This document shows positions 3,651 through 34,655 of a stretch of 57,019 nucleotides of DNA, piece after piece. Source of the DNA: a virus (taxonomy: Duplodnaviria; Caudoviricetes). How positions within the stretch are numbered: position 1 is the stretch's first letter; each line of letters opens with the position of its first letter. Location: positions 1-57,019 of IMG/VR virus record IMGVR_UViG_3300048839_000591. The stretch is one strand, 5' to 3'. The position numbers and the translations under genes are program-made. Under the pieces are notes generated by a model, which worked only from the letters and a program-made list of their open reading frames with translations, did no database searches and had not been told where the DNA came from.

Positions 3651-3666
3651 GTGATGAGCCTCCTAG

Positions 3667-3778
3667 AAACGAAAACGCCCGCCTCATTGCTGAAGCGGGC
3701 GCTCGCGCGGCGGCTCACCTAGTCATCAGGCGCGGCACGAATCCGTGCGGAGCCTTACTTGCTATTGGCTATATTATA
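3667..3778 (-). promoter_or_regulatory. Promoter (-10 TATAAT) plus structured leader ending in an intrinsic terminator, upstream of the tail tube gene
   Basis: TATAAT at 3778-3773; hairpin CGCCCGC...GCGGGCG followed by TTTTCGTTT just before the RBS. Confidence 0.65.
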
Positions 3779-3863
3779 ACGCTTTTCGATTGCGCGCAGA
3801 ACAAGAAGAAGCCCACGCCGAATCTCTAGCCAGAACTCCCGGTCGCGCGTCTCGGCATCCATG

Positions 3864-4286
3864 TTAGGAATCGGTCGCATAGACACGGTAGATACCGCCT
3901 AACTCGTAGTAGGTGATGCCGTCTTGCTGGTAGACGTTGCGGAATGGGTTGTCACGTGTCGAAGCCAGCACTTGGCCGCCGACGATGGTCCCGGATGTCT
4001 TGTGGAGCTGGGTGTGTATCCGGTCAGCGTAGCCTTCGAGCGGCTGAAATGAGGGGCGGCCACTCCGAAACTCCTGCACCGCCACCACGACGTAGAGCAG
4101 GTTGCTCATGATGATGTAGGCACCGACGCCGGCCTGGGAATCGGTGTTCGAGAGCGCCCGGAATTGCACGAGCGGGAAACTCTCGCCCTCCGGCACCACA
4201 TGACCGTAAATGCCGAGCGCAGCAAGGGTGCTATCGGCTTCGAGTTGAGAATAGAGCCAGGTGTCACCGACGAACAGTTCTGTCAT
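3864..4286 (-). CDS. Tail terminator / tail completion protein
   Basis: Size, position and WLYSQL...IYGHVVPEG..FP pattern. Confidence 0.65.
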   Translation of the reverse strand: MTELFVGDTWLYSQLEADSTLAALGIYGHVVPEGESFPLVQFRALSNTDSQAGVGAYIIMSNLLYVVVAVQEFRSGRPSFQPLEGYADRIHTQLHKTSGTIVGGQVLASTRDNPFRNVYQQDGITYYELGGIYRVYATDS

Positions 4287-4627
4287 GCAATCAACGCTTC
4301 CAGTTGCTTGTAGGCGGCGATAAACGGCGCGCGGTTTTCCTCAGCCGCTGGAATCAGCATGCCGAGCGCGCTGATGTGGACGGTGCCGAACTCGTGAAAG
4401 ATGTGGTAGAAGACGCTGTTATAGATAATCCAGGTGGTGGCATCGAGTTGTTCGACGACGTAGCCGCCCTTCATCGCGCCGGTATCGACGCGGGTGGTGC
4501 GGTCGATCGCGCCCCGCTGGATATCGAAGGCTGTCTTGCGATTGATTTGGTCCGCTGCTTTGGGCAGCCGTGCGGCGATCGCAGGCAGCTTGTTATAGCT
4601 AATGCTGACGGTGGTTTTCAGCGCCAT
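4283..4627 (-). CDS. HK97 gp10-like neck protein
   Basis: RVDTGAMK and HEFGT motifs. Confidence 0.8.
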   Translation of the reverse strand: MALKTTVSISYNKLPAIAARLPKAADQINRKTAFDIQRGAIDRTTRVDTGAMKGGYVVEQLDATTWIIYNSVFYHIFHEFGTVHISALGMLIPAAEENRAPFIAAYKQLEALIA

Positions 4628-4992
4628 TACTCGCTCACCATCGCAATCACTCGCGTGCTCAGTTCCCAGGAGCGGGGAGCCAACGGCGCCACAATCTCAT
4701 AGGTCACGCCGTCGGAGACGATGCGGTCGGTCGATTCGATATCGGTCTCGGCTGGGAAGGTGATAATCCAGTTCGATTCCATGCCGCTTTGCCCGGCCAC
4801 GACCGGCTCATTCGGGCGGAGCATGCTGGGAGAGACGCGACAAGCCACGGTGCCCGCCGGTGAGACACTGCCACTGATCCAGCCACCCGCGCCGTCGGAC
4901 GTGCCCGCGCTCATGCGGTTGATGACGCAGGTCGAGGGCAACGAGTCGTCGAGCGTGCCACGCATGGCGGCGATTTCGGCGTCAGTTAGCAT
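4627..4992 (-). CDS. Head closure / head-tail adaptor
   Basis: DGAGG, TDIESTDRI...G.TYEI motifs; likely start MLTDAEI at 4992. Confidence 0.75.
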   Translation of the reverse strand: MLTDAEIAAMRGTLDDSLPSTCVINRMSAGTSDGAGGWISGSVSPAGTVACRVSPSMLRPNEPVVAGQSGMESNWIITFPAETDIESTDRIVSDGVTYEIVAPLAPRSWELSTRVIAMVSE

Positions 4993-5668
4993 GGAGCCCC
5001 CATTCACGCATCACGGTTTCCGCAGGGATTCGGTCAGGTCGAAGGTGCGATTGATTCCCCCATGCGCTGACATCAGGGGCTGAATGTGTTGCCAGGTCCA
5101 TCTGCACAAGCTGATAGCCCAGCGCACGAAGCTGTTGACTGGCATGGAGGTCTTCACCCGGACTGCGCTGCGGTATCACGTCACGAATCACCGGCCAGTC
5201 ACGGGCACGAAACGTCCAACTGGCAGACGGGACGCTATCTCTGACCAACGCCTTCTCACCACCAACCTCGACCATCGCACGCACTTGGTTCCAACTACTC
5301 CATAAATCCTCGATGAACAGCCCAGCCAGAATGATTTCGTCCGACGCCGCGCCCCAGAACGCCTCCAGCCGTGGCAGCCAGCCGTCTTTGTAGGTGATGT
5401 CATCAGCGCTGAAGACGACGATATCCGGACCGGATTCCAGCGCCGCTTCGATGGCGCGAATCAGCCCGTACCACATGGCGCTGTTGCGGTTGTCGACGAT
5501 GCCGCGTGGGCAGTCGCGAACCAGTTTGTCGGTCATGTCAACCGAACCGTTTGTGAGCACGATAGGCTCAATCCCCGCCGCTCGGATAGACGAGAGCGTC
5601 GATGCCAGGTAGCCGGCGCGTCCGGTCTTGATGGCGTTGAATGTCAACACGGCAGCTTCGATGGTCAC
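4982..5668 (-). CDS. GT2-like (GT-A) glycosyltransferase
   Basis: VLTFN, NGS.D, SADD (DxD-like) and GED motifs; GTG start overlaps the upstream TGA. Confidence 0.7.
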   Translation of the reverse strand: MTIEAAVLTFNAIKTGRAGYLASTLSSIRAAGIEPIVLTNGSVDMTDKLVRDCPRGIVDNRNSAMWYGLIRAIEAALESGPDIVVFSADDITYKDGWLPRLEAFWGAASDEIILAGLFIEDLWSSWNQVRAMVEVGGEKALVRDSVPSASWTFRARDWPVIRDVIPQRSPGEDLHASQQLRALGYQLVQMDLATHSAPDVSAWGNQSHLRPDRIPAETVMREWGLHAN

Positions 5669-6708
5669 AGCACCCGCTCCACATCCTGAACCCAAGCCAC
5701 CATAAAGTCACGCGCTTGCCTCGGTAGATACTCCCAGTAGGCCATATGCGCGACGAGGATGCGCAGCTTGCCGAGAATCGTGTCGGAGGCCAGTGGATAG
5801 ACCGTTTTCAAGTCAGACACGAACCGCTCGGTATGCCGCATGCCCCACATCTCGGCCTCGAGGTCGGCTAACAGGTCATGCTCGTGGCGTTCCTGCCGCA
5901 CGAATGGCTGGCCAAAGGCGACGTGATAATCCGTCTCTTGAAGTACTCTTTGTGCGATGTATGAGCCAAAAATATCGTCATACCTTCCGATGCCGGGCGG
6001 TAGGAGCATCAGTGGCGCGAGTTCACGACTATAGGCCGTATTCTGGCTGTTGATCGGGCTCCAGGCTGTCTTCGGATTGATGGCGGTGCCATTCCATGAC
6101 AGTTCACCGTAATGAGCAACGTGAGGAAGTGAGTCCATCCGCTCGGTAGCGTTGATATCGGGATCATCATGAATCAGTCCGGTGGCGATGCCAGCACGTA
6201 CAGTCCGACCAATCAAGTCTGGTTGCTGTTGTCCGAACTGCCAGCGTTGTCCATCTCGAAGACTGTAAGGGAAACCACGAGCATAATAGCTATCTGGCTC
6301 TGCCCAGCCGCCCACATTGAACCAACCATGGGGGTAGGTGTATTGATGGGCTGGCATCGGATTGGACAGCATCATCTCAATCTGCGTGAAGTAGTCTTGG
6401 CGTTCAGGAATGTTATCCGTATCCACCGTCACGATAATGTCAGCACCGCTCTTGATAGCCTCTAGGATCGCGATATTCCGCCGCTGGATGCTCTTCCAGC
6501 CAATCACGTCCGAACAGGCATAGCCGAGCGCTTCCTGCTCTTGTGGAGCGATGTAGCGCGCACCGATGCCGGTACAGAAGTCGGCTATCTCGGACTGTGG
6601 CCCGTTCACGTCGCCCGCCACGATGATGTCAACATCCGGGCCGATGCGCCGGTACTCGGCGAGAACGTGCGGCACATGGACGGTAGTACTGACTAAGCAG
6701 ATGTTCAT
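5665..6708 (-). CDS. RGP/GT75-STELLO-like protein (candidate NDP-sugar pyranose-furanose mutase)
   Basis: RRNIAIL, DTDN, RGFPYSLR, DPDINA, PINSQNT and GRYDDIF motifs. Confidence 0.75.
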   Translation of the reverse strand: MNICLVSTTVHVPHVLAEYRRIGPDVDIIVAGDVNGPQSEIADFCTGIGARYIAPQEQEALGYACSDVIGWKSIQRRNIAILEAIKSGADIIVTVDTDNIPERQDYFTQIEMMLSNPMPAHQYTYPHGWFNVGGWAEPDSYYARGFPYSLRDGQRWQFGQQQPDLIGRTVRAGIATGLIHDDPDINATERMDSLPHVAHYGELSWNGTAINPKTAWSPINSQNTAYSRELAPLMLLPPGIGRYDDIFGSYIAQRVLQETDYHVAFGQPFVRQERHEHDLLADLEAEMWGMRHTERFVSDLKTVYPLASDTILGKLRILVAHMAYWEYLPRQARDFMVAWVQDVERVL

Positions 6709-7001
6709 TCAGTTTCGCCTCGATACGCAGCAATCGCTTCTTGAACACGATCTTCGCCACTATCGGCAGAATCCCACCACTCAACGGCATGCCAGATGTT
6801 TCGTAACCGTTCCTGACGTGTTTCAATACGGACCTTGGCTTGACGGATAATCAGGAGCACTTCTTCCGTTTCACGGGCAGCATCTTCGGCATAGCCAAGC
6901 CCAGCTAGGCGCTCAGCCATTTGCTCGATTTCGGCCTCCATAGTGAAGAGGCCCATATCGCAGTCTTTGGCGAACAAATAGTTGTAACTTCCCCCGCTCA
7001 C
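6705..7001 (-). CDS. Hypothetical phage protein (MSGGSYNY family)
   Basis: Coupled start/stop overlaps on both sides; AVEWWDS motif. Confidence 0.7.
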   Translation of the reverse strand: MSGGSYNYLFAKDCDMGLFTMEAEIEQMAERLAGLGYAEDAARETEEVLLIIRQAKVRIETRQERLRNIWHAVEWWDSADSGEDRVQEAIAAYRGETE

Positions 7002-8011
7002 GCTGCCACCTTTCGCGCGGCGACCTGCTTAGCGATCCAGCGGTAGGTCGGCTTGAGTCCATCACGCAGGCTGGTCGTTGGCTCCCAGCCAAGCACCTCA
7101 CGGCAGAGCGAATTGTCGGAGTTGCGCCCACGGACGCCCTGCGGCTTGCTCAGGTCATGGCGAATCTCAATCTCGACCTTGGCCCACGCTGCGACCAATC
7201 GTGTCAGATTGTTGATGGTCGTGAGTTCGTCACTGCCGATGTTCAGCGGTTCAGCATAGTCGGACTGCATCAGGCGATAGATGCCTTCAACGGTGTCATC
7301 AACGTAGGTGAAGGAACGGGTTTGCTCACCGTCGCCCCAGACTTCAATTGAGATGCTATCGGTCGTGAATCCGAACTCAGCCCCGGTCATTGCAATCAGT
7401 TTCGCCGTTGCCACCTTGCGGCAAATAGCCGCTGGGGCCTTCTCACGGCCACCGTCCCAGGTGCCCATCGGGCCGTAACTGTTATGTAAGCGGGCGATGC
7501 GCGTCTCTAGCCCGTACTGTTCGCGGTAGTAGTGGCACGCCCGCTCGTGAATTAGCTTCTGCCAACCATAGGCATCCTCAGCAGGGTCGGCAGGCATCAC
7601 CATATGCTCAGCAAGTGGCGTCACGTCGGGGCGGTCCTGTAGATACTGGGGATAGACCACGGCGCTACTCGTGAACAGGTAGCGCTTGACGGCACAGAGG
7701 CGGGCCGCTTCGAGCATGTTGGAGTTGACCAGCAGGTTGTTGCGCATGATGTCGGCATGATGGCCCTGGTGGATGAATCCAAGTCCGCCCATCTCAGCAG
7801 CCAGGTCGTACACCTCATCGACGCCCTGGCAGACGCGGATGCACGCGCTCATGTGGCGCAAGTCGAGCAAATAGAACGCATCGGCAGCGGTGGCGCCGAA
7901 CTCGGGATACTTCAGGTCGGCCCCGATGACGTGGTAGCCCCGCGCCTTGAGATAGCGCACGAGATGCGAACCGATGAAGCCGCCTGCGCCGGTCACGAGT
8001 GCTGTGGTCAT
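6998..8011 (-). CDS. NAD-dependent epimerase, GDP-mannose 3,5-epimerase-like
   Basis: GAGGFIG, LAAEMGGLGFI, YGWQK (YxxxK), WDGGREKAPAAICRK and GVRGRNSDN motifs typical of the GME subfamily. Confidence 0.88.
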   Translation of the reverse strand: MTTALVTGAGGFIGSHLVRYLKARGYHVIGADLKYPEFGATAADAFYLLDLRHMSACIRVCQGVDEVYDLAAEMGGLGFIHQGHHADIMRNNLLVNSNMLEAARLCAVKRYLFTSSAVVYPQYLQDRPDVTPLAEHMVMPADPAEDAYGWQKLIHERACHYYREQYGLETRIARLHNSYGPMGTWDGGREKAPAAICRKVATAKLIAMTGAEFGFTTDSISIEVWGDGEQTRSFTYVDDTVEGIYRLMQSDYAEPLNIGSDELTTINNLTRLVAAWAKVEIEIRHDLSKPQGVRGRNSDNSLCREVLGWEPTTSLRDGLKPTYRWIAKQVAARKVAA

Positions 8012-8211
8012 TTGCTTCCACCTTGGGTCATGCCGCGAACCGACTCTGCGAGGAACGTGCGAGCGAGTTCGAATGCTTGTGCGTTAGAGAATCCCTGACT
8101 AAGCGCTTGTTGCCGAACCAAGGCAAGCACGCCAATGAAGTTAGCGATGGCTTCTGTCTGCTGGTCACTATTCGCGATACCAAACAGATTCTTCAATTCG
8201 TCGTCTTTCAC
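8008..8211 (-). CDS. Small hypothetical protein
   Basis: 4-nt overlaps with both neighbours. Confidence 0.6.
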   Translation of the reverse strand: MKDDELKNLFGIANSDQQTEAIANFIGVLALVRQQALSQGFSNAQAFELARTFLAESVRGMTQGGSK

Positions 8212-9011
8212 GTCGCCACCCTCTCGATAATCTCCCGGTCTGCCAGCCAGTGGTCGTATTTGTCGATGTTTGCGACCAAGTACGCCGGATGCTGCTCACC
8301 GAACGGCTCATAGACGTAGACGTTATCCGGGTTGCCGCTCGGGTCTTGCCCCGTCCTAATGCACTCGGCGAGATGCGCTTCGTTGGTAATGGCTGGGGTG
8401 TCACACTCGGCATGGCTGAACGATTTGAGCTTGTTGCGGAGACTAGCGACGCCGCCGAAACTTGAGTACGACCAGCCGCCGTCCTGGAAGCACCATTCCC
8501 CCTTCATAACCGATAGCGTGTTACGAAGTGACTGCGGCAAATCAAGGTCGGCATACCGAATCGCTCGCGTGCCAAACCAAGGCCGCGTGTGTCGCCAGTT
8601 GAGGGTCATGCTGTACAACGCCTGCTCATACGCCACACGTTCAAAGTCCGCAAGCAGGAACGGCAGGTGCTTTATCGTTTCAGGATTCGGAATCTCGTCA
8701 ACGTCGCTCACCAGAATCACGTCATCCGGCTCGCAGCCATGCAGCCCGCGCATAATCGCGTTGCGCTGGAAGTGCTCCCGATGCCAGGGGTTATCGGTTG
8801 CTGGCAGGTCACGCACAGCCACATAGTTAATCCGATGGATGAAGGCAGCGAAGCGTTCACAGTTCTCGGAAAAGTAGAGTGGCTTGGGATTGCCCCTGAA
8901 CGTCTCCGTTGCTTCGACGAGTACGAACTGGTCCACCACGTCACCGAGCACGTTCAGCCGCAGTTCGAGCATGTCGAGTTCGGAATCGAACAAAAACGCA
9001 TCGACAATCAC
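8208..9011 (-). CDS. GT17-family glycosyltransferase (MGAT3-like)
   Basis: ELDMLELRL, VLVEA..TF.G.PKP, REHFQRN, SDVDEIP, GGW..S.FGG and KL.SFSH motifs. Confidence 0.88.
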   Translation of the reverse strand: MIVDAFLFDSELDMLELRLNVLGDVVDQFVLVEATETFRGNPKPLYFSENCERFAAFIHRINYVAVRDLPATDNPWHREHFQRNAIMRGLHGCEPDDVILVSDVDEIPNPETIKHLPFLLADFERVAYEQALYSMTLNWRHTRPWFGTRAIRYADLDLPQSLRNTLSVMKGEWCFQDGGWSYSSFGGVASLRNKLKSFSHAECDTPAITNEAHLAECIRTGQDPSGNPDNVYVYEPFGEQHPAYLVANIDKYDHWLADREIIERVAT

Positions 9012-9328
9012 GGCGTTGGCTCCATCAGGTAGGCCACGAGGTCAGGATTGCGCTGTAGGGTGTCCAAGAGCACCGGACCAAGAACCGTCACAAGTTGTTC
9101 TTCACGATTCGCCGGAAGTGGCCTCCCACAGATGTCGATCAATGTGTGCAACACCTCATGAATCAAGACTTCCGCTTGGCGGGATGGAGCACAGTCAGAG
9201 TGAATCGTGATGACATGCTTCTTGTAATTGACATCGCCATAAAACTCGTTCTCATCAAGCCGAACGTTGTCATTCGTCTGAATCTCATAACGAAATGGTC
9301 CAACGGTTACTTGCGTCGGTATTATCAC
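9008..9328 (-). CDS. Small ImmA/IrrE-like HExxH metalloprotein
   Basis: EVLIHEVLH motif with a downstream EE. Confidence 0.7.
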   Translation of the reverse strand: MIIPTQVTVGPFRYEIQTNDNVRLDENEFYGDVNYKKHVITIHSDCAPSRQAEVLIHEVLHTLIDICGRPLPANREEQLVTVLGPVLLDTLQRNPDLVAYLMEPTP

Positions 9329-9876
9329 GGCGCCCGCCATTCCCAAATCGAATCCGCCACCACCGTCGCGTTCGGCAGCACGTCAGACAGCGCTTCCTTG
9401 ACCTGACCAACGCCCCAATCATGGCCGCACATCAGACCACCGGACGCCACTAACGGCAGCCAGTTCGTCACGTCATCACAGACGCTCTGGTAATCGTGGC
9501 TACCATCAATAAAAACAAGGTCGAACGTGCACTCCCGCTCGCGATACCGCTTGGCTGCGTCCAGGCTGGTCATGTTGAGATGCACGCATTTCCCCTTGAC
9601 CAATTCCGGCATCAGGTGCTGCGTAAACAGCTTCTGTAGGTATTCGGGCCTGAGCGGCTGGTCTTGCTCACCACGCCAATCGTCGATGGCGTAGACAATG
9701 CCCGGCGTGGCCATGGCTAATGCTTTGGTACTGCGACCGGCGAAACTGCCCACTTCTACGATGCTGTGATGGTGCTGGGCTTGCTCTGCGAGGTAGCGCA
9801 GCTCGGTCAACGACATCCAGCCAACGATGCGTGCGGCCTGGTCGACAATGGTGTCGATGCTCAAGGTGGTGGTCAT
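9325..9876 (-). CDS. Class I SAM-dependent methyltransferase (Methyltransf_24-like, candidate O-methyltransferase)
   Basis: VEVGSFAGRS, FIDGSHDY and GG...GHD motifs. Confidence 0.85.
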   Translation of the reverse strand: MTTTLSIDTIVDQAARIVGWMSLTELRYLAEQAQHHHSIVEVGSFAGRSTKALAMATPGIVYAIDDWRGEQDQPLRPEYLQKLFTQHLMPELVKGKCVHLNMTSLDAAKRYRERECTFDLVFIDGSHDYQSVCDDVTNWLPLVASGGLMCGHDWGVGQVKEALSDVLPNATVVADSIWEWRAP

Positions 9877-11966
9877 GCCGTCTCCTCTAGCGTCAACTGC
9901 TGCGTCTGCTTGGCCGCTTCACGCTCCCAGTGAGCAATCCGATGGCGGGCAATGGTGACGTACTCCGCTTCGGCATCTATCCCGATGAAGCGGAAGCCCT
10001 GTCGAGCCGCACTACAGCCGGTCGAGCCACTGCCAGCAAAGCAATCGAGCACCAGCCCACCTGGCGGGGTCACTAAGCGCACCAACCAATCACAGAGAGA
10101 GAGCGATTTAACTGTCGGGTGAGAATTGGTCATGCCGTCGGGTAAGCCAAGGTTCCGTTCGCGCCTGCTCGCCTTCGCCTGATAGATTAGGGGCGCGTCG
10201 ATGTCCGGGTGGAACTGGGGGAAGAAGCGGGCAGCCGACCCCGTATCTGGTTGCCGTTCTACGTGAATGCGCCGCTCCAGTTCATTGCCTCGTAAGCCAA
10301 CGTGACGGCCTTTGCCATCCTGCCCAGTGCCGCCACTCTTGCGCTCCCCCGACTGCTCCCCAAGCACCCGGACAGGGCATGACTCGTGGCATCGCCAGGC
10401 GGTCACATGCTCGCCGGCGGTGTAGGACTCAGCGAGGCCGTCTTGGCCCGCATGGCCGTTCGTGCTCAGTCCACCTTTGCCGCGCTTGGCCGGATAATGG
10501 CCGTTGCCCTTGACCCGCGTGGTGCCGAGCGGGACGCAGTGCTCGGTGTGTTGCAGCAAAAGATTACTTGGCCATCTCCCGGTACTTAGAGTGTGGCTTT
10601 GACGGGTCAATGAGGTGAAGTCGTGCGTGATCGCCCCGCCGCATGAGCTGCAAGTTTTCGAGCCGGTTGTCCTGTTTGTCGCCGTTGATATGGTGGAGGA
10701 CGTGTCCGTCAGGGACGGGTCCATGGGCGTCTTCCCATACTCGTCGGTGCTCAAGTTGGTTTTTCCGAATTGGCTTGCGCTTAGTACCGCCTGGCTCGGT
10801 CCACTGGAGCATCCAATAGCCGTTTTGGAGGTATCGGAAAGGCCGTTCTCGTCCGCGCCGTTCATCGTCAGCTCGGCATTGCTTGGAACAGTAGATGCCT
10901 TTGTTGCTGGTGTTGCGGGTCTCTGATTCTTTGCCACAGCCTCGGCACACGAAGCGCAAAGGGATAGCTCTAGTTCCCATGATTGTTCATTCCTTACTCG
11001 CGTGGCTCCGATATTCACTGCTCCAACTGACCAACGGGCGATGTTGTCCACCATGCGCCCCTGTGGCGGCTTCTGTGCCATACAAACGGGTTCAAGGCTT
11101 GGCTTAAGCGACTGACGCCCGTAGAACCAGCCGTCCCAGGCTTTCGCGGCGTCGGTGGCGGGTGCGGTGATGTCGTAGTGTCCTTCAGTATTCGCGCCGA
11201 ATCCCCATTGAGTTGCGAACTCTGGTTTGTTGCTCGGCGTTCGCCATTTGCTATCTAAGACCTCGCGCTCGGCTTCGTCGTAGAGCCGTTCAAAGTCAGG
11301 CGACAAATCCAGTAATGAGCGGACCTGATCCCAATGCTGGCGCGGTGGCATCCCGCCTCGATGATCGGTGCGTGCCCAGTAGCACGACGACGACTTGATA
11401 CCGAGCACGCGATCAATATCGCTATGGCTGTACATTGAAGACTTGACCGCCTGCGCATACGCACGGGAAAAGGACTGCCAGGCCACCGGGTTACCCCCGG
11501 CCTTGTCCAGTTGCTTAGACAAATTAGTAGCCTTCGGGAACCCACTTCCGTAACACCACCCAATGAGCGGATGCAGGATGAACCCCGCGTCCTCGATGGC
11601 AACCGCCATGCGGTGATACGTCCGGCTGCCTCCGAATGCCAGCAGATAGCCCCCTGGCTTCAAGACGCGATAGACGGCCTGCCAGGTTTCGACGTTGAAC
11701 GCGACGCCGGTTGCGTCCCATTGCTTGCCCATAAAACCTTTGCCGTGGCTGCGTTGGTTGTAGAGTTCGCCGCCGCACTTCGGGCAGGCATTCGGGTTGC
11801 CGTCACGTCCACCGAGCACCCGGCCACAATCGCGGCACTTCTTGACATCGGGTACACGGTTGGTCAGGTCATATGGCGGGTCACAGACCACGGCGTCGAT
11901 GCTGTTCGGCTCCATGCCGCGCATCACGTCCAGCGCGTCGCCGTGGATGACCTGCCAGTCGCTCAC
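9873..11966 (-). CDS. Beta-class N4-C/N6-A DNA methyltransferase with large insertions
   Basis: DPPY precedes HPTVK and DCFAGSGSTG; GRWPSN; GTG start overlaps the GT4 stop. Confidence 0.88.
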   Translation of the reverse strand: MSDWQVIHGDALDVMRGMEPNSIDAVVCDPPYDLTNRVPDVKKCRDCGRVLGGRDGNPNACPKCGGELYNQRSHGKGFMGKQWDATGVAFNVETWQAVYRVLKPGGYLLAFGGSRTYHRMAVAIEDAGFILHPLIGWCYGSGFPKATNLSKQLDKAGGNPVAWQSFSRAYAQAVKSSMYSHSDIDRVLGIKSSSCYWARTDHRGGMPPRQHWDQVRSLLDLSPDFERLYDEAEREVLDSKWRTPSNKPEFATQWGFGANTEGHYDITAPATDAAKAWDGWFYGRQSLKPSLEPVCMAQKPPQGRMVDNIARWSVGAVNIGATRVRNEQSWELELSLCASCAEAVAKNQRPATPATKASTVPSNAELTMNGADENGLSDTSKTAIGCSSGPSQAVLSASQFGKTNLSTDEYGKTPMDPSLTDTSSTISTATNRTTGSKTCSSCGGAITHDFTSLTRQSHTLSTGRWPSNLLLQHTEHCVPLGTTRVKGNGHYPAKRGKGGLSTNGHAGQDGLAESYTAGEHVTAWRCHESCPVRVLGEQSGERKSGGTGQDGKGRHVGLRGNELERRIHVERQPDTGSAARFFPQFHPDIDAPLIYQAKASRRERNLGLPDGMTNSHPTVKSLSLCDWLVRLVTPPGGLVLDCFAGSGSTGCSAARQGFRFIGIDAEAEYVTIARHRIAHWEREAAKQTQQLTLEETA
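10564..10980 (-). CDS. HNH endonuclease nested in an alternate frame of the DNA methyltransferase
   Basis: CRGC..YCSKQC zinc finger, EHRRVW, HHINGDKQDNRLENL and H motifs; upstream AAGGA. Confidence 0.85.
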   Translation of the reverse strand: MGTRAIPLRFVCRGCGKESETRNTSNKGIYCSKQCRADDERRGRERPFRYLQNGYWMLQWTEPGGTKRKPIRKNQLEHRRVWEDAHGPVPDGHVLHHINGDKQDNRLENLQLMRRGDHARLHLIDPSKPHSKYREMAK

Positions 11967-14057: not shown

Positions 14058-14089
14058 TGTACTCACGCGGCGGTAGCTCCCTTCTGAGC

Positions 14090-14769: not shown

Positions 14770-14790
14770 CGAACTCCCCTCAACGAGTGG

Positions 14791-14817
14791 AGGCGGTAGG
14801 TTGCCCCACCGCCTGTA
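14791..14817 (-). terminator. Hairpin after the capsid gene
   Basis: AGGCGGT..GG-GCAA-CC..ACCGCCT; no U-tract. Confidence 0.4.
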
Positions 14818-14823
14818 TCGTCA

Positions 14824-15882: not shown

Positions 15883-15894
15883 GATTCAGCCCCC

Positions 15895-16308
15895 TTACAG
15901 ATTCACGTAGAGCAGTCGATCGGGCGCGGTGCCAGCAGCGAAGTTGCTGACCACGTGACCGACTGGTACGCTGACCGACCCGGCAGCCGTTCCCAGCACG
16001 CCGGACGTATTCGAGAGGAACATCGCCTGCCCATAGTTGATGAGCGAGAGCGCGGTTCCCATGTCGATGATGCCTTTGGAAACGGCGGTTATAGCGATAT
16101 TCGCCTGGTTTGCGCCGGTTATCGCAATGCCGCGATTGCCTGCATGGCTGTCTGCCGCGTCGCCCATCGCCTTGACGAGCTTGCCCGTGGTGGCATCGAC
16201 GTGAACCGCCTGGCCTGCGGTGATTGCCTCACCAGCCGGGGCGGTAAACTGTTCGATGACCTGGACGGGAGCGACCTCCGCAGCAGCAACGGTTCCGATG
16301 TCTGCCAT
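15895..16308 (-). CDS. Capsid decoration/cement protein
   Basis: AGEAITAGQAV motif; Ala/Gly-rich; lies between scaffold and capsid genes. Confidence 0.7.
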   Translation of the reverse strand: MADIGTVAAAEVAPVQVIEQFTAPAGEAITAGQAVHVDATTGKLVKAMGDAADSHAGNRGIAITGANQANIAITAVSKGIIDMGTALSLINYGQAMFLSNTSGVLGTAAGSVSVPVGHVVSNFAAGTAPDRLLYVNL

Positions 16309-16320
16309 AGATGCCTCCGG

Positions 16321-16908
16321 TTAGAATCTCGGCTTGAAGTAGGGTTTTTCACGCCGCTGTTCAAGCGAGAGTTGTGAATCGTGGTCTGCCTTTGGCGTGG
16401 CCGGGACACCGTTCGTCTTCTGGCTGAATGAGGCGCGATTGGCCGCGATGTAGCGCAGTTGCTTGACCGGCGAGAGTTCGTCCAGAAGCGCCGTCACATG
16501 CGCCGGGATGCCTTCACGTTCCTTCTGCAAGAACTCGTTGAGCACGCCGGTCAGTTCGTCGCGTTCGGCTTCCAATTGGTCAAGCGTACCGACTTTGGAC
16601 TCTAATTCCAGAATCGTTTGCGCTCGTGTCTCAGCCAGTTCCTTGAACTGTTCGTTCTTGGCTAGTGCCTCTTCCGCACCTTTGCGCGCGGCTTTCTCTT
16701 CCGCGTCTTTGCGCTTCTTCTCTTCGCGTGCCAGCCGCTCCTTGAGGGATTCGGTGATATAGGCATCAAGCTCGTCACGGCTCGCGAAGCTAATCGGCTG
16801 CTCAGCCGGATTCCCGCCGTTTGGTTCCCCGGTGGCGTCTACCGGTGGCTGCTCAGTCGCTGGCGCGTCGGTGGTCTCGGGTGTCTCGGTCACGGGGTCT
16901 GCTCCCAT
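16321..16908 (-). CDS. Capsid scaffolding protein
   Basis: Acidic Pro/Thr N-terminus, coiled coil (ERLAREEKK), synteny; GTG at 16893 is an alternative start. Confidence 0.8.
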   Translation of the reverse strand: MGADPVTETPETTDAPATEQPPVDATGEPNGGNPAEQPISFASRDELDAYITESLKERLAREEKKRKDAEEKAARKGAEEALAKNEQFKELAETRAQTILELESKVGTLDQLEAERDELTGVLNEFLQKEREGIPAHVTALLDELSPVKQLRYIAANRASFSQKTNGVPATPKADHDSQLSLEQRREKPYFKPRF

Positions 16909-16973
16909 CGTTTACCGCCTTGGGATGAATCCCTTTACCGCCTGGCGTCCGGGCGTCAGGAGCGCGCGGGGTT

Positions 16974-17075
16974 AAACACAAAGAACCCGCTCGGTTCAGG
17001 CTGTTCACCTGATTCCGGCGGGCGTGCCGCGCTGTTATTGCGTCTAGTGTACGCTGTGTGCTATGGCAACGTCAA
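16974..17075 (-). promoter_or_regulatory. Promoter plus terminator-leader upstream of the scaffold/capsid operon
   Basis: TTGACG-N18-TACACT, then AGCGCGG-N5-CCGCCGGAA hairpin and TTCTTTGTGTTT. Confidence 0.7.
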
Positions 17076-17284
17076 TCTGGGGGTGTTTTCGACTCGAATT
17101 GCACACATCCGAACGTCTTGTGAGTAATCATTATCGAACCATGCTGTGCGAAGTCGCTCGCATACGCCAATGAGTTCTCATGTTCTGGTGTTTCGCCCTG
17201 TGCTCCAGTAAGCTGACACCAACCCCAATCGCTGTCTGGTGGTGAAGCATCCCACCACGTGCAGTCTTTGCAGTTGCCCATCAT
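17072..17284 (-). CDS. Small Cys-rich protein
   Basis: CKDC..WGWC..FGC; AGGAG RBS. Confidence 0.65.
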   Translation of the reverse strand: MMGNCKDCTWWDASPPDSDWGWCQLTGAQGETPEHENSLAYASDFAQHGSIMITHKTFGCVQFESKTPPD

Positions 17285-17289
17285 CGCTC

Positions 17290-18369
17290 CTAATCCGCTG
17301 CCATCCGCATGAATTGTAGCGCACGTCGTTCGCCCACAATCGCACGTAGGCTGCGCTCGGCATACTGCTCACCCCAGACCTTGTCTCGACGCAGGCCAAC
17401 CAGGTCGTCAAGCCCAATCGTGCCGTCATGGTAGGCCGCCAGCTTACCCGGTCCCAGGATGCGCAGCTTGACCGCGTCATCCTGCCGCTCGAACCAATCG
17501 ACGCCGGATTCGATGCGTGGCCGTCTATCCGGGATTCCGCTAAAGCCGAGGTCGGACCACGAAGCCGTCAGAGGCGAAGCGACACATCGACATTGCCAGT
17601 GACTCCGCATCGGCTCGTCCAGTGGGAAAACTTGACCGTGGAGCGACAGACATACCGGACATGTCCTCGGCGACATGGTCGCTATCCAGGTCCACCCCTT
17701 GACCACGTCCCGGTTCGCCCGGTACGTCGCCAGGTTCGCCTCCCGGTAGGCATTGAGCGGCGCGGTACGTGAGAGCCGGAGCGCCGAATCGAGGGCCATG
17801 CCCGTCGCCTTCCGCATCATACGGGCTATCTCACGTGGCCCTTGCCCGGTGCCGAGGCCCACAATCAGCGTATCCTTGACCGCTTCGCTCGCAGCCGGTC
17901 CAAGCTGCGCCAGATGCACCGAGAGCGGCGTTCCGTCACCGAGGAAGCCCACGAGGCGCATCAGTGGTTCCGTGGCCGCACGAGTAAACGTCGCCAGCAC
18001 AGCGGCACGTGCAACAAGCGGCGCCGGTCCCAAGCCTTCGAGCATCAGTTGCGTGGCGTTGTCCAGCCCTGAACGCACCGCCTGCCCTTGCAGCGCCGTG
18101 GTCTCATTGGCAGCGATGGTGGCATAGCGGCCTATCTCGCGTTCGATCTGGTCAATCAGGATTTGGTAGCGCTCTTCTTGAAACAGCCAGGCAGGCGAGA
18201 CGTCGGTCCCAGCGGCACGGGCGCTAGCGATGCGTCCAGCCAGCGCGGTCATGTCCACGTTCAGGCGCTCAAGCACCAGCTCATAGGCACGAATCAGCCG
18301 AATGGCGGCGTCGCGTTGGCCGTCGAGCAGTTCACGCCGGAAGCGCCGGGCAGCAGCCTGGACGGTCAT
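17290..18369 (-). CDS. Minor head morphogenesis protein (Mu gpF / SPP1 gp7-like)
   Basis: W.A....TCPVC..LHG and HWQCRC motifs. Confidence 0.88.
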   Translation of the reverse strand: MTVQAAARRFRRELLDGQRDAAIRLIRAYELVLERLNVDMTALAGRIASARAAGTDVSPAWLFQEERYQILIDQIEREIGRYATIAANETTALQGQAVRSGLDNATQLMLEGLGPAPLVARAAVLATFTRAATEPLMRLVGFLGDGTPLSVHLAQLGPAASEAVKDTLIVGLGTGQGPREIARMMRKATGMALDSALRLSRTAPLNAYREANLATYRANRDVVKGWTWIATMSPRTCPVCLSLHGQVFPLDEPMRSHWQCRCVASPLTASWSDLGFSGIPDRRPRIESGVDWFERQDDAVKLRILGPGKLAAYHDGTIGLDDLVGLRRDKVWGEQYAERSLRAIVGERRALQFMRMAAD

Positions 18370-18581
18370 GCTAACCGCCGATAAGGCAACAGGTGGGGGC
18401 CAATAATCGTACGCGCCTCAAAAAGATGGTTTGCCCCTAAGACAGTGCTATTATTCCGATCCGAAATCGCAACAGCCTGCCTGTACCACTGCTCAAATGT
18501 TTCAGGTGAAACATAGGGACGCCAATAAACGATGACAGCATCCGCAACGCAAGTATGCGGTTTCGGTTGTTTATGCCTCAC
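18366..18581 (-). CDS. Small hypothetical moron
   Basis: Coupled overlaps; flanked by duplicated gene-boundary sequences. Confidence 0.55.
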   Translation of the reverse strand: MRHKQPKPHTCVADAVIVYWRPYVSPETFEQWYRQAVAISDRNNSTVLGANHLFEARTIIGPHLLPYRRLA

Positions 18582-18621
18582 TCGTCAGCCTCCTCGCTAT
18601 GCTGGGCTACGGCCTGGACGG

Positions 18622-18900
18622 TCATGCGTATGGCCCGTCGTAAGCGGCACAGCCTTGATGCTCAAACGTCAGGAGGCCACAACGATGTGATGCCGGATTC
18701 GTACAGACGCCCCAGTCAACTCCCAATTTGCCTTTGAGTTCAATAAACCAGCGACACCCCATAGAGCAATCCGCCCCCCATGACCCATCCGGGCGCGAGC
18801 GTGGCATGGTGCCGTAGCCTTCCCAATCGTCATTCAGACGTTTGACGATCGTCAGGAGATGGGTATGGTCCGGTTTCGCTGGCCTCTTCGTAGCCATCAC
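18622..18900 (-). CDS. DUF3027-like Cys-rich protein
   Basis: CSMGCRWF..L.G.LG.DWGVCTN....LTFEHQGC. Confidence 0.65.
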   Translation of the reverse strand: MMATKRPAKPDHTHLLTIVKRLNDDWEGYGTMPRSRPDGSWGADCSMGCRWFIELKGKLGVDWGVCTNPASHRCGLLTFEHQGCAAYDGPYA

Positions 18901-20519
18901 TCGTCAGCCTCCTCGCCACGGTTGAAGCGGTCTATCATCGCATCGGCCACCGTCGGCGGGTTCTCGCGTTGCTCCCGTTCGGCCTCGCTACGCATCTGGT
19001 CAATCTCCATCTCGTTCAAGCCCGCCTCGCGCCACAGTTGCTCATTCGAGTAGCCATATTGTTTCTTGAGCACCGCGCCCTGTGCTCGCGTGTACTCGGT
19101 TTGGGCGCGTTCGCTGGCACTGGTGGCAATCACGTCCCGCCGCTCGAAATGATGCTCGAAGTCACCCGCTTCAAACGTGCCGATGCGTTCGGACTCAAAG
19201 CCGGGGATACCGTTGACCTGGGCTAAGGTCAAGGCCATCTGCGTGACTTGCACCACAGCGGAGTCAGCGTTGCCACGGGCCTCAATCACGCGGTCAATGG
19301 CCGCCGTCAACAGGTAACGCAGCGCCACGCCGGAATCAGCCGATGCGCGGTGAATCTGGTAGTAGCGGAGTTCTGGAAGGTCGTAGTCTTCCAGATGCTC
19401 CATGCCATCCTTCAAGATAGCGAGGTGTTCGGCGTAATGCAGGTCGGGAACCATCGGCTCCATCGAACTCATACCGGGCATGAAGTACATCTCGTCATCG
19501 CCAACGGTAATCGTGCTATTGGCCTCCCCCATACGCGGGGCCGGCATCGGGCGATTGGCCGCGTCCAGCATGTTCGCGGCAACAACCCAGGTAACCTTAT
19601 TGTTGCGAAAGATTTGTTGATGCAATCTGGTAGCTGAGCGGTTGATCTCATCAATCTTGTCGATACAGGGCATAATCAACGCCTCGCCCCGCTCATCACC
19701 GATACTGCGAAAGATGCCGTGCGAGAACGGGACAAAGTCGATGCCCATCTGTTCAAGATATTGCTCATCGACTGGCGTACCCAAGCGATCGAGATTGTCT
19801 TCCTCATAGCGGAACCGCTCTGTTGGTGTCTCCCACAACCGAAAGAGCCCGCTGTCTTTGTCCCACACTTCTGTATGGACATAGGCGACTTTCTTGCCGT
19901 CCGACTGCCGTCGCGTTTTCGGAATATCGAGCCGGATATAGGTCATGAAACCACGCTCGTCTTTGTCGAAATCCGAGACGTGCATCGGGTCGATCATGTT
20001 GATGTAGGAGCGAATCACCTCGTCAGAATTGCGTCGTTTGCGAGTGGCCGCTTGCAGGAACTGGTCACCATAGCGCGGCATGTTGCGCGCCATCTCTTGC
20101 TTGTTCTGCTGCCAGTTCGACCACTGGTATATCTTGTCAATGGCCGGAATCAGCTTGTCATTATCGCTATCAAGCGGGGCATCAGCACCGGGTCGCGGGT
20201 CATGGACAATCTCGAAGACCTCTTCGAGCGAACCAGCCCATAGGGTCGCCGGATAGAACTCAACCGCCGCATGCGTCGGGTTCCTGAGCGGCTTCATTGG
20301 CTCTTTCCAGATACCACTCTCTTTGAGCAGCAAGGCCAGGTTCTCGTACAAATCAACCGAGCGGTAGTAGCGATCGAGCATGGCATAGCGCTGCCGGTGT
20401 GAGAGACCACTGGTCAACGCTTCCATGCCCGGTCGCTGAGCATACAGGCTATTCGGAGCGGCAAAGGTGTTCATCGCGCCGTACATGGCACTTTCGACAC
20501 GGTTAAGCGGCCACACCAT
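18897..20519 (-). CDS. Portal protein
   Basis: 540 aa directly after TerL; YGD, SGVAL motifs of SPP1 gp6-like portals. Confidence 0.85.
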   Translation of the reverse strand: MVWPLNRVESAMYGAMNTFAAPNSLYAQRPGMEALTSGLSHRQRYAMLDRYYRSVDLYENLALLLKESGIWKEPMKPLRNPTHAAVEFYPATLWAGSLEEVFEIVHDPRPGADAPLDSDNDKLIPAIDKIYQWSNWQQNKQEMARNMPRYGDQFLQAATRKRRNSDEVIRSYINMIDPMHVSDFDKDERGFMTYIRLDIPKTRRQSDGKKVAYVHTEVWDKDSGLFRLWETPTERFRYEEDNLDRLGTPVDEQYLEQMGIDFVPFSHGIFRSIGDERGEALIMPCIDKIDEINRSATRLHQQIFRNNKVTWVVAANMLDAANRPMPAPRMGEANSTITVGDDEMYFMPGMSSMEPMVPDLHYAEHLAILKDGMEHLEDYDLPELRYYQIHRASADSGVALRYLLTAAIDRVIEARGNADSAVVQVTQMALTLAQVNGIPGFESERIGTFEAGDFEHHFERRDVIATSASERAQTEYTRAQGAVLKKQYGYSNEQLWREAGLNEMEIDQMRSEAEREQRENPPTVADAMIDRFNRGEEADE

Positions 20520-21882
20520 GGTTCGTTCCTCTCGCGTGCCAACCGGCGCTCAGATAATGCTCCAGGTAGATGATGAGCTGGGCGAAGGCGTCGCCTTGGT
20601 CGTCATGCTCGGTATCCGGCAACGCAAACAGCTCACGTTCAAAGTCGTGCAACCAGGGCGCGAGCGGCGACGGCTGGGGCAGCCAGACCATGCCGAGCTT
20701 GCACCAGACGGCGGCTTGCTGGAAGCGTTGGCGTTTCTGCCCTTTGGGCTGGAAGGGAATCAAGAGCGGGCGCATCCAGTCAGGACCGGCATTGAGCAAG
20801 GTCTGATAGGCCGATGTGCCCGCTACCGTGTCTTCGATGATGATGCCGGAAAGCTTGCCGTCGCGGTTGTAACGCAAGGCCGTGTCTTTGATGCGGTCAA
20901 CGAGGTCAGGAAAGATGAGCTTTTCACGCCAGACCTCACGCAGCCCTAAGGCATAGTCGTCAAACAAATCCCCCACGGCACAGGCTGAGTAGTCGGACGA
21001 GTCCTTGTCCTTCATGGCCGTATCGAACGACAGGTAGCGTCCCACGGTCAGTTTCTGCAAACGTTCATCGTCCAGGTGGAAGCGATTTCGTTCACGCCAC
21101 CAGATGCGGTGGAACGCCCGCGTCGTCGGGTCGGTGACCCACAAGCCTTTGAGCAATTGGTCACGGGTAATCGGGTCCAGCTCGGACAGTGACAGCACGT
21201 ACTCGTCATGGTCGAGGTGTGGGTTGTCGTTCAGGTTGGCGGGCACGAACTGCCGATCAAGCGAACGCAGGGCTAAGAACCGCTCATACACCCACTCATG
21301 GCCTTCACCGCCAGGATTGGACGCAGCTCGCATGCGCAATGGCACAGTCGAGCCTTCAAGCCGGCGTAGACGAGAAAAGAGGTAGGTGTACATGGGCTCT
21401 GCGAACTGCGTTAATTCGTCATACCCTACGAACTGGAATTCTGAACCCTGATACCGATATTTCGTCTTCTCATATTCGAGATAGCCAAAGGTGAGCGTCG
21501 CGCCACTCGGGAAGGTCCAAGTCTTGGTCTTCTCATCCCACCGGGCATCAGTCCCAGCCAACCACTCATAGGCACGGTCCATCAGCGCACCAGGTAGTGC
21601 CAGGTCAGCGTAGGTGCGCCGTAAGAGCAACGCCGCATACCCAGGGACATCGACGTACTGAAGAGCTGCCATCAAAAGGGCTTCACTCTTGCCCCCACCA
21701 GCGCTCCCCCCAAATAACGCCTCACGCATAGGCAGGCTCAAGAACACGGCCTGCTTGGCCGTCGGCATGTGGGGAATGTAGTTATTCGTGAAGACCGTCC
21801 GTGTCAGCAGTTCCAGGCTCTGTTCCACCAGATCCGAAGATTGCCTGGAAGTTGGCACGGTAGGTGTCAACGTCGAAATCAT
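20503..21882 (-). CDS. terL: Terminase large subunit
   Basis: Walker A GGSAGGGKS, Walker B VGYDE, ASNP, SFDTA and HDDQGDA. Confidence 0.93.
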   Translation of the reverse strand: MISTLTPTVPTSRQSSDLVEQSLELLTRTVFTNNYIPHMPTAKQAVFLSLPMREALFGGSAGGGKSEALLMAALQYVDVPGYAALLLRRTYADLALPGALMDRAYEWLAGTDARWDEKTKTWTFPSGATLTFGYLEYEKTKYRYQGSEFQFVGYDELTQFAEPMYTYLFSRLRRLEGSTVPLRMRAASNPGGEGHEWVYERFLALRSLDRQFVPANLNDNPHLDHDEYVLSLSELDPITRDQLLKGLWVTDPTTRAFHRIWWRERNRFHLDDERLQKLTVGRYLSFDTAMKDKDSSDYSACAVGDLFDDYALGLREVWREKLIFPDLVDRIKDTALRYNRDGKLSGIIIEDTVAGTSAYQTLLNAGPDWMRPLLIPFQPKGQKRQRFQQAAVWCKLGMVWLPQPSPLAPWLHDFERELFALPDTEHDDQGDAFAQLIIYLEHYLSAGWHARGTNHGVAA

Positions 21883-22399
21883 GTTCGACCTTCATCGGTG
21901 CGCCCGGTATGCCGCCGTGTTCGAGCTTGTCGCTCCATTGGCCCAACTCCTGGGCCGCTTGCTTCTCGTGGTCAAGGAGTGCTTTGAGTAAGCCGGTATC
22001 GACTTCGTATTCGTCGATGATGGTCTGGTTGCGTCCGGTGCCAATGGCCCGCTCACGATGGACCAAGAGGCCGGTCTGACCACCAGGGATGCCAACCATC
22101 TTGGGATCAGTGCCGCGTTCGTCTCGCACCTGTTGCAACTTCAACCAGTCCGTATTGAGCCGTGCAACGCGTTTGCGTCGCTGGGCAATGGCCAAGCGCA
22201 GGGCTGCCCGTTCCAACTGGCCAACCACCTGTTGCACCTGTGCGACGAACTCAGGATGGTCCTTCCAACGCGCCAGAGTACGCCGGCTAATGCCTGCCTG
22301 CTCAGCAATCTGTTCGTCTGTGAGGTTGTCGTCAGCAAGCAACGCCGCTGCGGTGTGCGAGGATTGTGACCAACGGAATGCTGTGCCATTTTGTGCCAT
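21782..22399 (-). CDS. Putative terminase small subunit (N-terminal HTH)
   Basis: TDEQIAEQAGISRRTLARWK HTH; directly upstream of TerL. Confidence 0.75.
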   Translation of the reverse strand: MAQNGTAFRWSQSSHTAAALLADDNLTDEQIAEQAGISRRTLARWKDHPEFVAQVQQVVGQLERAALRLAIAQRRKRVARLNTDWLKLQQVRDERGTDPKMVGIPGGQTGLLVHRERAIGTGRNQTIIDEYEVDTGLLKALLDHEKQAAQELGQWSDKLEHGGIPGAPMKVEHDFDVDTYRANFQAIFGSGGTEPGTADTDGLHE

Positions 22400-22400
22400 A

Positions 22401-22595
22401 TCACGCCGCGCTCGCAGTGGCCGAGCCGCCCTGCCAGACGGTGGTCGTGCCGCACTTCTCGCAGGTGATGCGCGCCTCAGTCGTCTCAATCTCGCGCTTC
22501 ATGCCGCCGCGTATGTGGGCACGGATGGTCAGCATGTCGCCGTGGCGTTCGGCTAACGGCTGTTCGCACTTGGGGCAGCGAATGAGCATCGCCAA
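22401..22595 (-). CDS. Com-like zinc-ribbon regulator
   Basis: IRCPKC..PLA and I.CEKCG motifs; first gene of the late operon. Confidence 0.7.
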   Translation of the reverse strand: MAMLIRCPKCEQPLAERHGDMLTIRAHIRGGMKREIETTEARITCEKCGTTTVWQGGSATASAA

Positions 22596-22609
22596 TCAGC
22601 ACCGTCCTT

Positions 22610-22686
22610 AAACGCGAAAACCGCCGGTTGCCCGTGGTTGGGGCATTTCCGGCGGTCAATCCGCGCTACTATGCACGATAAGTATA
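22610..22686 (-). promoter_or_regulatory. Promoter plus terminator-leader upstream of the Com-like/terminase operon
   Basis: TATACT, then AGCGCGG-N5-CCGCCGGAA hairpin and TTTTCGCGTTT. Confidence 0.7.
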
Positions 22687-34648: not shown

Positions 34649-34655
34649 GGTTCCT

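Follow-up and report, generated by a model that had tools for sequence, protein, structure and literature searches.

Here, we describe three promoter–leader–terminator cassettes (L1, L2 and L3) and a small zinc-ribbon protein encoded directly behind the first of them. They lie on the minus strand of a stretch of 57,019 nucleotides (nt) of a virus of the Caudoviricetes (IMG/VR record IMGVR_UViG_3300048839_000591, positions 1 to 57,019); this whole stretch is called the window below. The record is linear, with a completeness estimate of 74% and a G+C content of about 60%, and the minus strand holds nearly all genes of the window. The cassettes are intergenic and consist of a -10 box, a leader of about 50–110 nt and a strong hairpin followed by a U-tract. 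Directly behind them are the starts of the zinc-ribbon/terminase operon (L1), the scaffold/capsid operon (L2) and an operon starting with the gene of a 330-amino-acid (aa) protein (L3). The features concerned are the following.

22686-22681, minus strand: -10 box TATACT of L1, with no good -35 box and 13 nt before AGCGCGG
22667-22647, minus strand: shared element in L1, AGCGCGG-ATTGA-CCGCCGGAA, with AGCGCGG at 22667-22661 and CCGCCGGAA at 22655-22647
Within L1, minus strand: apical stem TGCCC/GGGCA with a 7-nt loop, then A and CCGGCGG (read from the sequence)
22655-22621, minus strand: intrinsic terminator of L1 predicted by folding, a two-tier hairpin of -22.3 kcal/mol, then TTTTCGCGTTT at 22620-22610
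17075-17046, minus strand: promoter of L2, TTGACG-18-TACACT, 12 nt before AGCGCGG
17033-17013, minus strand: shared element in L2, AGCGCGG-CACGC-CCGCCGGAA, with AGCGCGG at 17033-17027 and CCGCCGGAA at 17021-17013
Within L2, minus strand: apical stem TCAGG/CCTGA, then A and CCGAGCGGG (read from the sequence)
17022-16986, minus strand: intrinsic terminator of L2 predicted by folding, a hairpin of -22.2 kcal/mol with one bulged A, then TTCTTTGTGTTT at 16985-16974
3778-3667, minus strand: whole cassette L3, with TATAAT at 3778-3773, a leader of about 100 nt and GCGCG-AG-CGCCCGC
3704-3673, minus strand: predicted terminator hairpin of L3, GAGCGCCCGC...GCGGGCG, with TTTTCGTTT at 3675-3667; the first hairpin of this leader is GCACG/CGTGC
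22401-22595, minus strand: zinc-ribbon protein, first gene behind L1, 64 aa from a TTG start or 62 aa from the ATG at 22589

An earlier note on this DNA had proposed that these leaders and the product of the first gene behind L1 form an antitermination switch. Every sequence feature that it listed for the three leaders is present where the note had placed it, and the first gene behind L1 is, as it had said, an open reading frame (ORF) of the CxxC...CxxC type. In silico, a GC-rich hairpin stands directly before a U-tract at L1, L2 and L3, as required of an intrinsic terminator, and the predicted cassettes combine a sigma-70-type promoter with a promoter-proximal terminator of this kind. In an energy scan of the minus strand for hairpins with a T-tract, L1 (-22.3), L2 (-22.2) and L3 (-18.6) rank within the top four sites, the fourth being at position 51218 (-17.2 in one run of the scan, -20.6 in another); their folding z-scores are -4.5, -3.2 and -3.1, respectively. 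A simple terminator scan over the window as a whole revealed no enrichment (13 found, 14.1 expected).

The exact 21-nt pattern AGCGCGG-N5-CCGCCGGAA has two matches, L1 and L2, and 100 shuffles give an expectation of 0.00; once three mismatches are tolerated, the two found are no better than chance (1.69 expected). The nonamer CCGCCGGAA has no further copy on either strand, and AGCGCGG alone is common (28 copies). An alignment of both leaders spans about 97 nt from CACAGCG through GTTTAA, contains a single indel of 11 nt and has a score of 37, the maximum in 300 shuffles being 35. Judged by this alignment the two leaders are paralogous. They do not differ in the 5' flank and the 5' arm of the terminator, and N5, the apical stem-loop and the 3' arm, with its bulged A in L2, have diverged. 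The apical stems had been called covarying in the earlier note; four of the five apical pairs are indeed changed on both sides and still pair, which holds for a comparison of two sequences only, and in which the MAFFT alignment of L1 and L2 misplaces the apical stems by one column.

Common to all three leaders is CA(A)TAR 5–7 nt past the -10 box; only these three sites match this pattern, which was defined post hoc, versus 0.44 expected. The -10-like hexamer in the initially transcribed region reads CATAGT in L1, with A2 and T6 present, and CAATAA in L2 and CAATAG in L3, both without T6. Inspection by eye of the relatives described below found no universal second -10-like pause element.

Folding suggests two roles for the shared element. 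The GCGG of the upstream part can pair in silico with the CCGC of the terminator 5' arm, giving a competing hairpin of 4 base pairs (bp). When this pairing is forced, the energy is -18.2 versus -24.0 kcal/mol for L1 and -17.0 versus -22.6 kcal/mol for L2 (a cost of 5.6–5.8), the basal terminator stem is excluded and the residual stem lies 4–6 nt from the U-tract. A ligand that stabilises the GCGG/CCGC hairpin would abolish termination, because the residual stem is detached from the U-tract. In the read-through RNA, on the other hand, AGCGCGG(A) of L1 pairs with UUCGCGUU, with CGCG inside the U-tract, and AGCGCGG of L2 pairs with CCGCGC nine nt past the U-tract, each time giving a predicted helix of about 22 bp. 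The shared element may act as a competing hairpin or as a clamp, and the two sequences fit both equally.

These long helices lead to an explanation without any switch, which we regard as doubtful. The hairpins would be strong terminators of the ordinary kind, which close the operon before them and insulate one module from the next, the promoters would leak through at a constant level, the 5' flank would help to form long 5' stem-loops that stabilise or process the read-through mRNA, and the identity between L1 and L2 would result from duplication and selection for an efficient terminator. Each terminator does also close an operon at its 3' end, the cassette travels between phages that are unrelated, and a purine-rich 5' flank (AAGAUGA), conserved in six relatives, pairs with the U-tract, a common feature of strong terminators. 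This explanation has to account, however, for a 5' arm that was exactly kept while the 3' arm gained a bulge, for hairpins of -20 to -37 kcal/mol with long U-tracts that should halt most polymerases, and for good -10 boxes upstream of the terminators. A promoter just upstream of a terminator would be wasteful if termination were not conditional.

The count of such -10 boxes comes from related phages. The capsid protein of the window has hundreds of metagenomic relatives, the closest with 94% and 64–67% identity, and 80 IMG/VR loci encoding capsid relatives of 33–56% identity were examined for leaders. A terminator was called at -14 kcal/mol or better, 400–1700 nt upstream of the capsid gene, in loci with at least 1500 nt upstream, the window included. 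It was present in the syntenic place, upstream of the scaffold gene, in 41 of 68 loci (32 distinct terminators). Within 100 nt upstream, in 90-nt windows, 19 of the 32 have a -10 score of at least 5 and 10 of the 32 a score of at least 6, and random windows reach these scores in 7.2% and 0.9% of 3000 trials. With 83-nt windows a score of at least 5 was reached upstream in 14 of 30 cases versus 4 of 30 downstream. Many promoters of the relatives are TGn-extended or have a TTGACA-like -35 box at 16–18 nt. Twenty genome contigs encoding capsid relatives were analyzed as well, among them one from the isolate Longilinea arvoryzae KOME-1, whose related prophage (L243) has such a cassette. Of 19 loci that could be evaluated, 12 have the terminator, and the -10 box accompanies it in 10. 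To judge from these sequences, this head module has conserved a promoter just before a strong terminator ahead of the scaffold gene. The exact motif of L1 and L2 was not found in the 80 capsid-relative loci, and the longest common substrings around terminators did not discriminate within from between genomes. A scan of IMG/VR for the exact motif gave 60 stretches that were rejected as chance matches, being coding or otherwise unrelated contexts and a few repeated sequences, none with the terminator layout. When 28 window proteins were compared with the relatives, the scaffold matched 39 loci, the 137-aa protein between scaffold and capsid 72 loci and three others one locus each; no small ORF of the window had a match in the capsid-relative loci. 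The relatives share only head genes with the window, and the cassette thus passes among phages whose early regions are unrelated.

A promoter, 55–110 nt and a terminator are also the anatomy of a small RNA gene, so the cassettes could encode short trans-acting RNAs. In phage lambda and in Shiga phages the 6S RNA and the StxS RNA, respectively, are by-products of PR'-tR', and one report describes a short RNA from a late promoter (PMC7547250). The leader sequences are not conserved between relatives, no complement of CCGCCGGAA occurs elsewhere in the window, and Rfam gave no match to the leaders, all of which makes such a function very unlikely; moreover, it would be compatible with attenuation and does not replace it. 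The earlier note had stated that a known Rfam motif would remove the novelty of the leaders; over the window there were 0 hits at the gathering score, and at E up to 5 positions 3600-22800 gave one unrelated weak hit (10280-10341), with the leaders unmatched.

Some leader types of the relatives are described here in their own right. The locus L112 represents a second phage with two paralogous cassettes (positions 7725 and 16864), which have a common -10 region, CCAAYCR-CCCGCTAGAAA and a closing CGGCGGG and, like L1 and L2, have different apical stems. Six loci or locus pairs (L079/L246, L089, L243 from Longilinea arvoryzae, L248, L085 and L078) have a conserved leader type with TGnTAnAAT, about 40 nt that include GCUGC.ACUGCUG in 4/6, and GGAAGAUGAGCGC at the foot of terminators that otherwise differ. 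Its purine-rich flank pairs with the U-tract, and 8 of 20 predicted pairs are changed on both sides; in some phages it precedes the scaffold gene, and in L089 it lies close to where the late region begins. In the scaffold leaders of the Chloroflexota-labelled loci L242, L244, L247 and L249 the terminator 5' arm is preceded by a direct copy, AGAGCGCCC AGAGCGCCC ... GGGCGCUCU, and the apical parts differ.

The zinc-ribbon protein belongs to a small family with the motif RCxxC...H[IV]RGGxKR...CEKCG. In the 62-aa form the CxxC pairs are at residues 5-8 and 43-46 and are invariant in six sequences; the alignment invariants are the four cysteines together with R27, G28 and R32 of the HIRGGxKR stretch, a basic RGG-like motif that would suit binding of nucleic acid. 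According to its sequence and an AlphaFold2 (AF2) model, it is a small C4 zinc protein of about 60 aa; the model is a confident six-stranded all-beta ribbon with a predicted local distance difference test (pLDDT) score of 86. A word-indexed search yielded one relative with 89% identity, and phmmer four small relatives (64–78 aa, 45–49% identity) as well as five long proteins of 735–3442 aa. No match was obtained by tblastn against cultured phages or in a comparison with five related records, and PHROGs contributed one weak match without annotated function. The earlier note had regarded the protein as Com-like. This identity did not hold: Pfam at E up to 0.01 gave seven generic zinc-ribbon families, all under the cut-off, with no Com family. 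At E up to 10 Com was not among the best 25 of 39 Pfam families, and all 15 NCBIfam hits were generic, under the cut-off and not Com; the modelled fold had no informative match either.

The family pattern was found at two IMG/VR loci, L155 and L156, which are near each other in sequence. In both, TATAAT-ACAC-GCATAGT, a GGGCGC/GCGCCC hairpin and a terminator of -25 kcal/mol ending with CGGCGGC-TTTTCGTTT lie directly upstream of the gene, about 30 nt separate the terminator from the start codon, and terminase genes follow downstream; for comparison, L1 reads TATACT-TATCGT-GCATAGT ... CGGCGG-TTTTCGCGTTT. The TerL of L156 is 46% identical to that of the window. The cassette is present at all three loci carrying the gene (two lineages), so that the family is linked with such a leader. 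Before TerL it was found in 2 of 55 terminase relatives with at least 1000 nt upstream, one of the two being L156, the zinc-ribbon locus itself. A hidden Markov model (HMM) of the family detected no further member in the capsid-relative loci and contig pieces, 80 terminase-relative loci and 20 genome loci; the same scan gave four weak hits (E 0.024–0.073). Metagenome and genome scans with zinc-ribbon alignments gave no new relative, one alignment returning two known contigs and two 15-residue matches. The co-occurrence of leader and gene that the earlier note had proposed to look for is found, in a tiny sample and for a gene that would be co-inherited with its own leader regardless of function. 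Such linkage of a gene to the leader upstream of it is no evidence of binding.

Unrelated CxxC...CxxC ORFs lie just upstream of cassettes in L085, L132, L096, L177 and L109; in the window the 70-aa cysteine-rich ORF occupies this position before L2. Within 250 nt of cassettes 6 of 14 small ORFs are of the zinc-ribbon type versus 42 of 471 small ORFs, none of the CxxC...CxxC ORFs beside cassettes matches the Com family, and most Chloroflexota prophages have no small zinc-ribbon ORF near the cassette. This enrichment is fragile, a lead and not a result. Two such ORFs without detectable similarity to the window protein may be mentioned separately, one directly upstream of the terminase leader in L109 (125-427) and one upstream of the scaffold leader in L251 (3951-4157).

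Profile searches of the window proteins reveal a lambda-like temperate gene layout. The divergent early operon encodes a ribbon-helix-helix protein, RecT, DnaB, an O-like initiator, a Mom-like protein, a helix-turn-helix (HTH) protein and RusA; it is followed by terminase subunits, portal, MuF-like protein, scaffold and major capsid protein, with a tail protein and an endolysin beyond. The genes that matter here are listed below.

36152-37288, plus strand: integrase (profile search)
34647-35405, plus strand: cI-like repressor (profile search)
34460-34648, minus strand: ribbon-helix-helix gene, divergent from the cI-like repressor (profile search)
22689-22850, minus strand: 53-aa arginine-rich ORF (isoelectric point 12, 12 Arg+Lys, GGAG-type ribosome site), whose stop codon abuts the -10 box of L1
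21782-22399, minus strand: small terminase subunit (HTH), operon behind L1
20503-21882, minus strand: TerL, operon behind L1
18897-20519, minus strand: portal, operon behind L1
17290-18369, minus strand: MuF-like gene, operon behind L1
17072-17284, minus strand: 70-aa cysteine-rich ORF, final gene ahead of L2 (ORF inspection)
16321-16908, minus strand: scaffold, first gene of the operon behind L2 (14824-16908)
Between scaffold and major capsid protein genes, minus strand: 137-aa protein, operon behind L2
14824-15882, minus strand: major capsid protein, operon behind L2
2658-3650, minus strand: 330-aa protein, first gene behind L3, without family match in profile search; the label "tail operon" derives from position alone

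A near-consensus promoter, TTGACA-16-GATAAT (34702-34675), lies beside the repressor, integrase and ribbon-helix-helix genes, and the region 34460-37288 looks like a lambda-like immunity switch in its gene order. The Mom-like DNA modification gene (25750-26241, minus strand; PHROG 1384, E 1e-38) is followed a few genes downstream by small cysteine-rich ORFs at 25152-25376 and 24803-25123 (74 and 106 aa). In phage Mu a zinc-finger protein controls mom, and by analogy one of these two ORFs might regulate the Mom-like gene. Among cultured phages blastn and tblastn found only distant terminase matches (at most 39% identity over most of the query) and no close relative, and a single-protein TerL scan of IMG/VR found no relative. 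Of the 20 genome contigs encoding capsid relatives (31–51% identity), 11 are labelled Chloroflexota, mostly Anaerolineae, and the others are spread over eight other labels; by these labels the host phylum is likely Chloroflexota.

L1 follows RusA where a cI/cro-RecT-DnaB-O-like early operon ends, the place of Q-PR'-tR' in lambda. This synteny suits antitermination by another factor, namely a processive Q- or N-like early protein loading at or near L1, or a general polymerase-binding antiterminator such as gp39 of P23-45 or p7 of Xp10, with the zinc-ribbon protein acting elsewhere, e.g., in packaging. Several early ORFs, 22983-23303 included, have no family assignment, some of them cysteine-rich (24319-24810, 24803-25123 and 25152-25376), and the arginine-rich 53-aa ORF that abuts L1 resembles in composition an RNA-binding peptide. 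Three ORFs occupy the lambda-Q position itself: this one, a hydrophobic one of 52 aa and one of 106 aa whose N-terminus is hydrophobic. A Q21-like antiterminator has reportedly been recognised by structure and not by sequence (10.1101/2024.11.20.624540), and a hidden Q-like protein may be encoded in the early region. If every antiterminated polymerase can read through them, head-module leaders should turn up in phages with unrelated early regions, as they do; many relatives have extended -10 promoters, and at all three loci the zinc-ribbon gene is tied to terminase genes as tightly as to the leader.

Nevertheless, we consider another factor rather improbable. Searches of the 23 early ORFs with Pfam, PHROGs and NCBIfam profiles gave no match to the Q family and none to the N family. 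The profile scans of these ORFs and of the late genes agree with the earlier note, which had recognised no Q-like, sigma or RinA-like late activator. Between RusA and L1 there are only tiny or hydrophobic ORFs, and the 53-aa ORF is a doubtful gene that yielded no homologue in a homology search and whose own sequence is absent from the protein collection. In addition, the arguable CATAGT hexamer in the initially transcribed region is found only at L1, and a separate promoter for each late operon would be left without explanation.

The interpretation that we prefer, with a probability of roughly 40%, is that promoter-proximal attenuators gate the late operons of what would be a temperate siphophage resembling lambda, that L1 and L2 share an element resembling a ribonucleic antiterminator (RAT), and that the zinc-ribbon protein is the candidate factor. 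Host RNA polymerase of the sigma-70 type would start at each -10 box, make a leader of about 50–110 nt and stop at the intrinsic terminator, so that packaging, head and tail genes would be made only once a phage factor suppresses termination. This factor would stabilise the GCGG/CCGC hairpin, which is exclusive with the basal terminator stem, and leave the U-tract unattached. The zinc-ribbon protein would stimulate its own synthesis at L1, as BglG does, and would then open L2. An antitermination switch as such is plausible, and in the present comparison the zinc-ribbon protein is its leading, still unproven, candidate factor.

Of the switch outlined in the earlier note, the promoter–leader–terminator units, the recurring layout, the competing hairpin and the linkage of the gene with a leader in a second lineage stood up, and the Com identity did not. 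A number of observations weigh against the assignment of the role to the zinc-ribbon protein or against a switch built on the shared element. L3 has no AGCGCGG-N5-CCGCCGGAA and resembles L1 and L2 in promoter design alone; the leader of L155 and L156 lacks this pattern, too. The competing hairpin has 4 bp only (-4.1 to -4.5 kcal/mol alone), and pairing of AGCGCGG with CGCG/GUGU in or after the U-tract could account for its conservation without a protein. In Pfam and NCBIfam the zinc-ribbon protein matches no Com, Ogr or Q family, and fold searches of the AF2 model against PDB gave nothing informative (best Foldseek E 0.88, best VIA Z 2.7). The cassette is missing in 53 of the 55 terminase relatives, and 27 of the 68 capsid-relative loci are without the terminator. 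Almost all cassette-bearing relatives lack the zinc-ribbon family, and therefore the layout does not require this protein. The early regions of the relatives are unrelated to that of the window, and a head-module leader travelling among phages with different regulators fits a generic or factor-independent role. Finally, the enrichment of zinc-ribbon ORFs near cassettes is lost (1/6 vs 27/241) with another ORF filter, which removes ORFs overlapped by long open frames and in GC-rich genomes also drops key ORFs.

A more far-reaching version seems distinctly unlikely at present. The zinc-ribbon family would be a new class of sequence-specific RNA-binding antiterminator that acts at a RAT-like element, first in positive feedback and then on the capsid operon, and a large phage group related to mostly-Chloroflexota prophages would have promoter-proximal terminator cassettes ahead of every late operon as its usual late switch. 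To our knowledge, late-gene control is known in detail for few model phages only, and we know of no such report on phages that infect Chloroflexota or similar uncultured hosts. Provided that the cassettes are conditional terminators, the switch could be read from the sequence as a strong promoter followed by a strong terminator before scaffold, capsid or terminase genes, which would aid operon annotation in thousands of metagenomic phages. Should the zinc-ribbon protein prove to be the factor, the known kinds of antitermination proteins would be joined by one that is compact, portable and RNA-binding, belongs to a new fold class and has a defined target of 21 nt. It would also serve as a useful genetic part.

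Among known systems, the lambda Q/PR'-qut-tR' arrangement has a sigma-70 promoter closely before an intrinsic terminator, after the nin/RusA region and with the late structural genes downstream, as seen here. It differs in having one such unit and not three, one per late operon; furthermore, profile scans found no Q homologue in the window, the promoter-adjacent gene lies here downstream and not upstream, and only L1 has an arguable -10-like pause element. P23-45 pairs gp39 with extended -10 promoters, and many relatives of the present phage have extended -10 promoters ahead of terminators. Reports describe gp39 as an antiterminator at intrinsic terminators (PMC3351154) and p7 of Xp10 as a small phage protein that enables host polymerase to read through them (PMC6624301). 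Unlike L1 and L2, which share a specific element, gp39 and p7 are not site-specific, and no homologue of them was identified here.

P2 Ogr and P4 Delta are small zinc-finger activators of several late promoters in a temperate phage, and small zinc protein, temperate phage and several late promoters are found together here as well; in contrast, Ogr acts on initiation at promoters without a -35 box and without a leader terminator, and there is no family match. Mu Com, an RNA-remodelling protein that binds beside a hairpin, is likewise a small phage C4 zinc protein (the window protein has about 62 aa). It differs by the absence of a family match, by the distance of 34 residues between the cysteine pairs of the protein described here, and by activating translation of mom and not read-through. 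The gene following the zinc-ribbon gene encodes the small terminase subunit, and the Mom-like gene (25750-26241) is 3 kb away and not preceded by the zinc-ribbon protein.

A formal counterpart of the preferred interpretation is the RAT-terminator antitermination of BglG, SacY and LicT, in which bglG lies behind its own terminator. Here, a 62-aa zinc ribbon takes the place of a CAT-PRD protein, profile scans found no CAT-PRD domain in any ORF that they covered, the competing hairpin has 4 bp only, and a phage replaces the sugar-sensing context. Nevertheless, a conserved element overlaps the 5' arm of otherwise differing terminators at two sites (L1 and L2), its fold excludes the terminator in silico as that of the BglG/SacY RAT does, and the candidate antiterminator is encoded by the first gene behind its own target terminator, an arrangement that would provide positive feedback.

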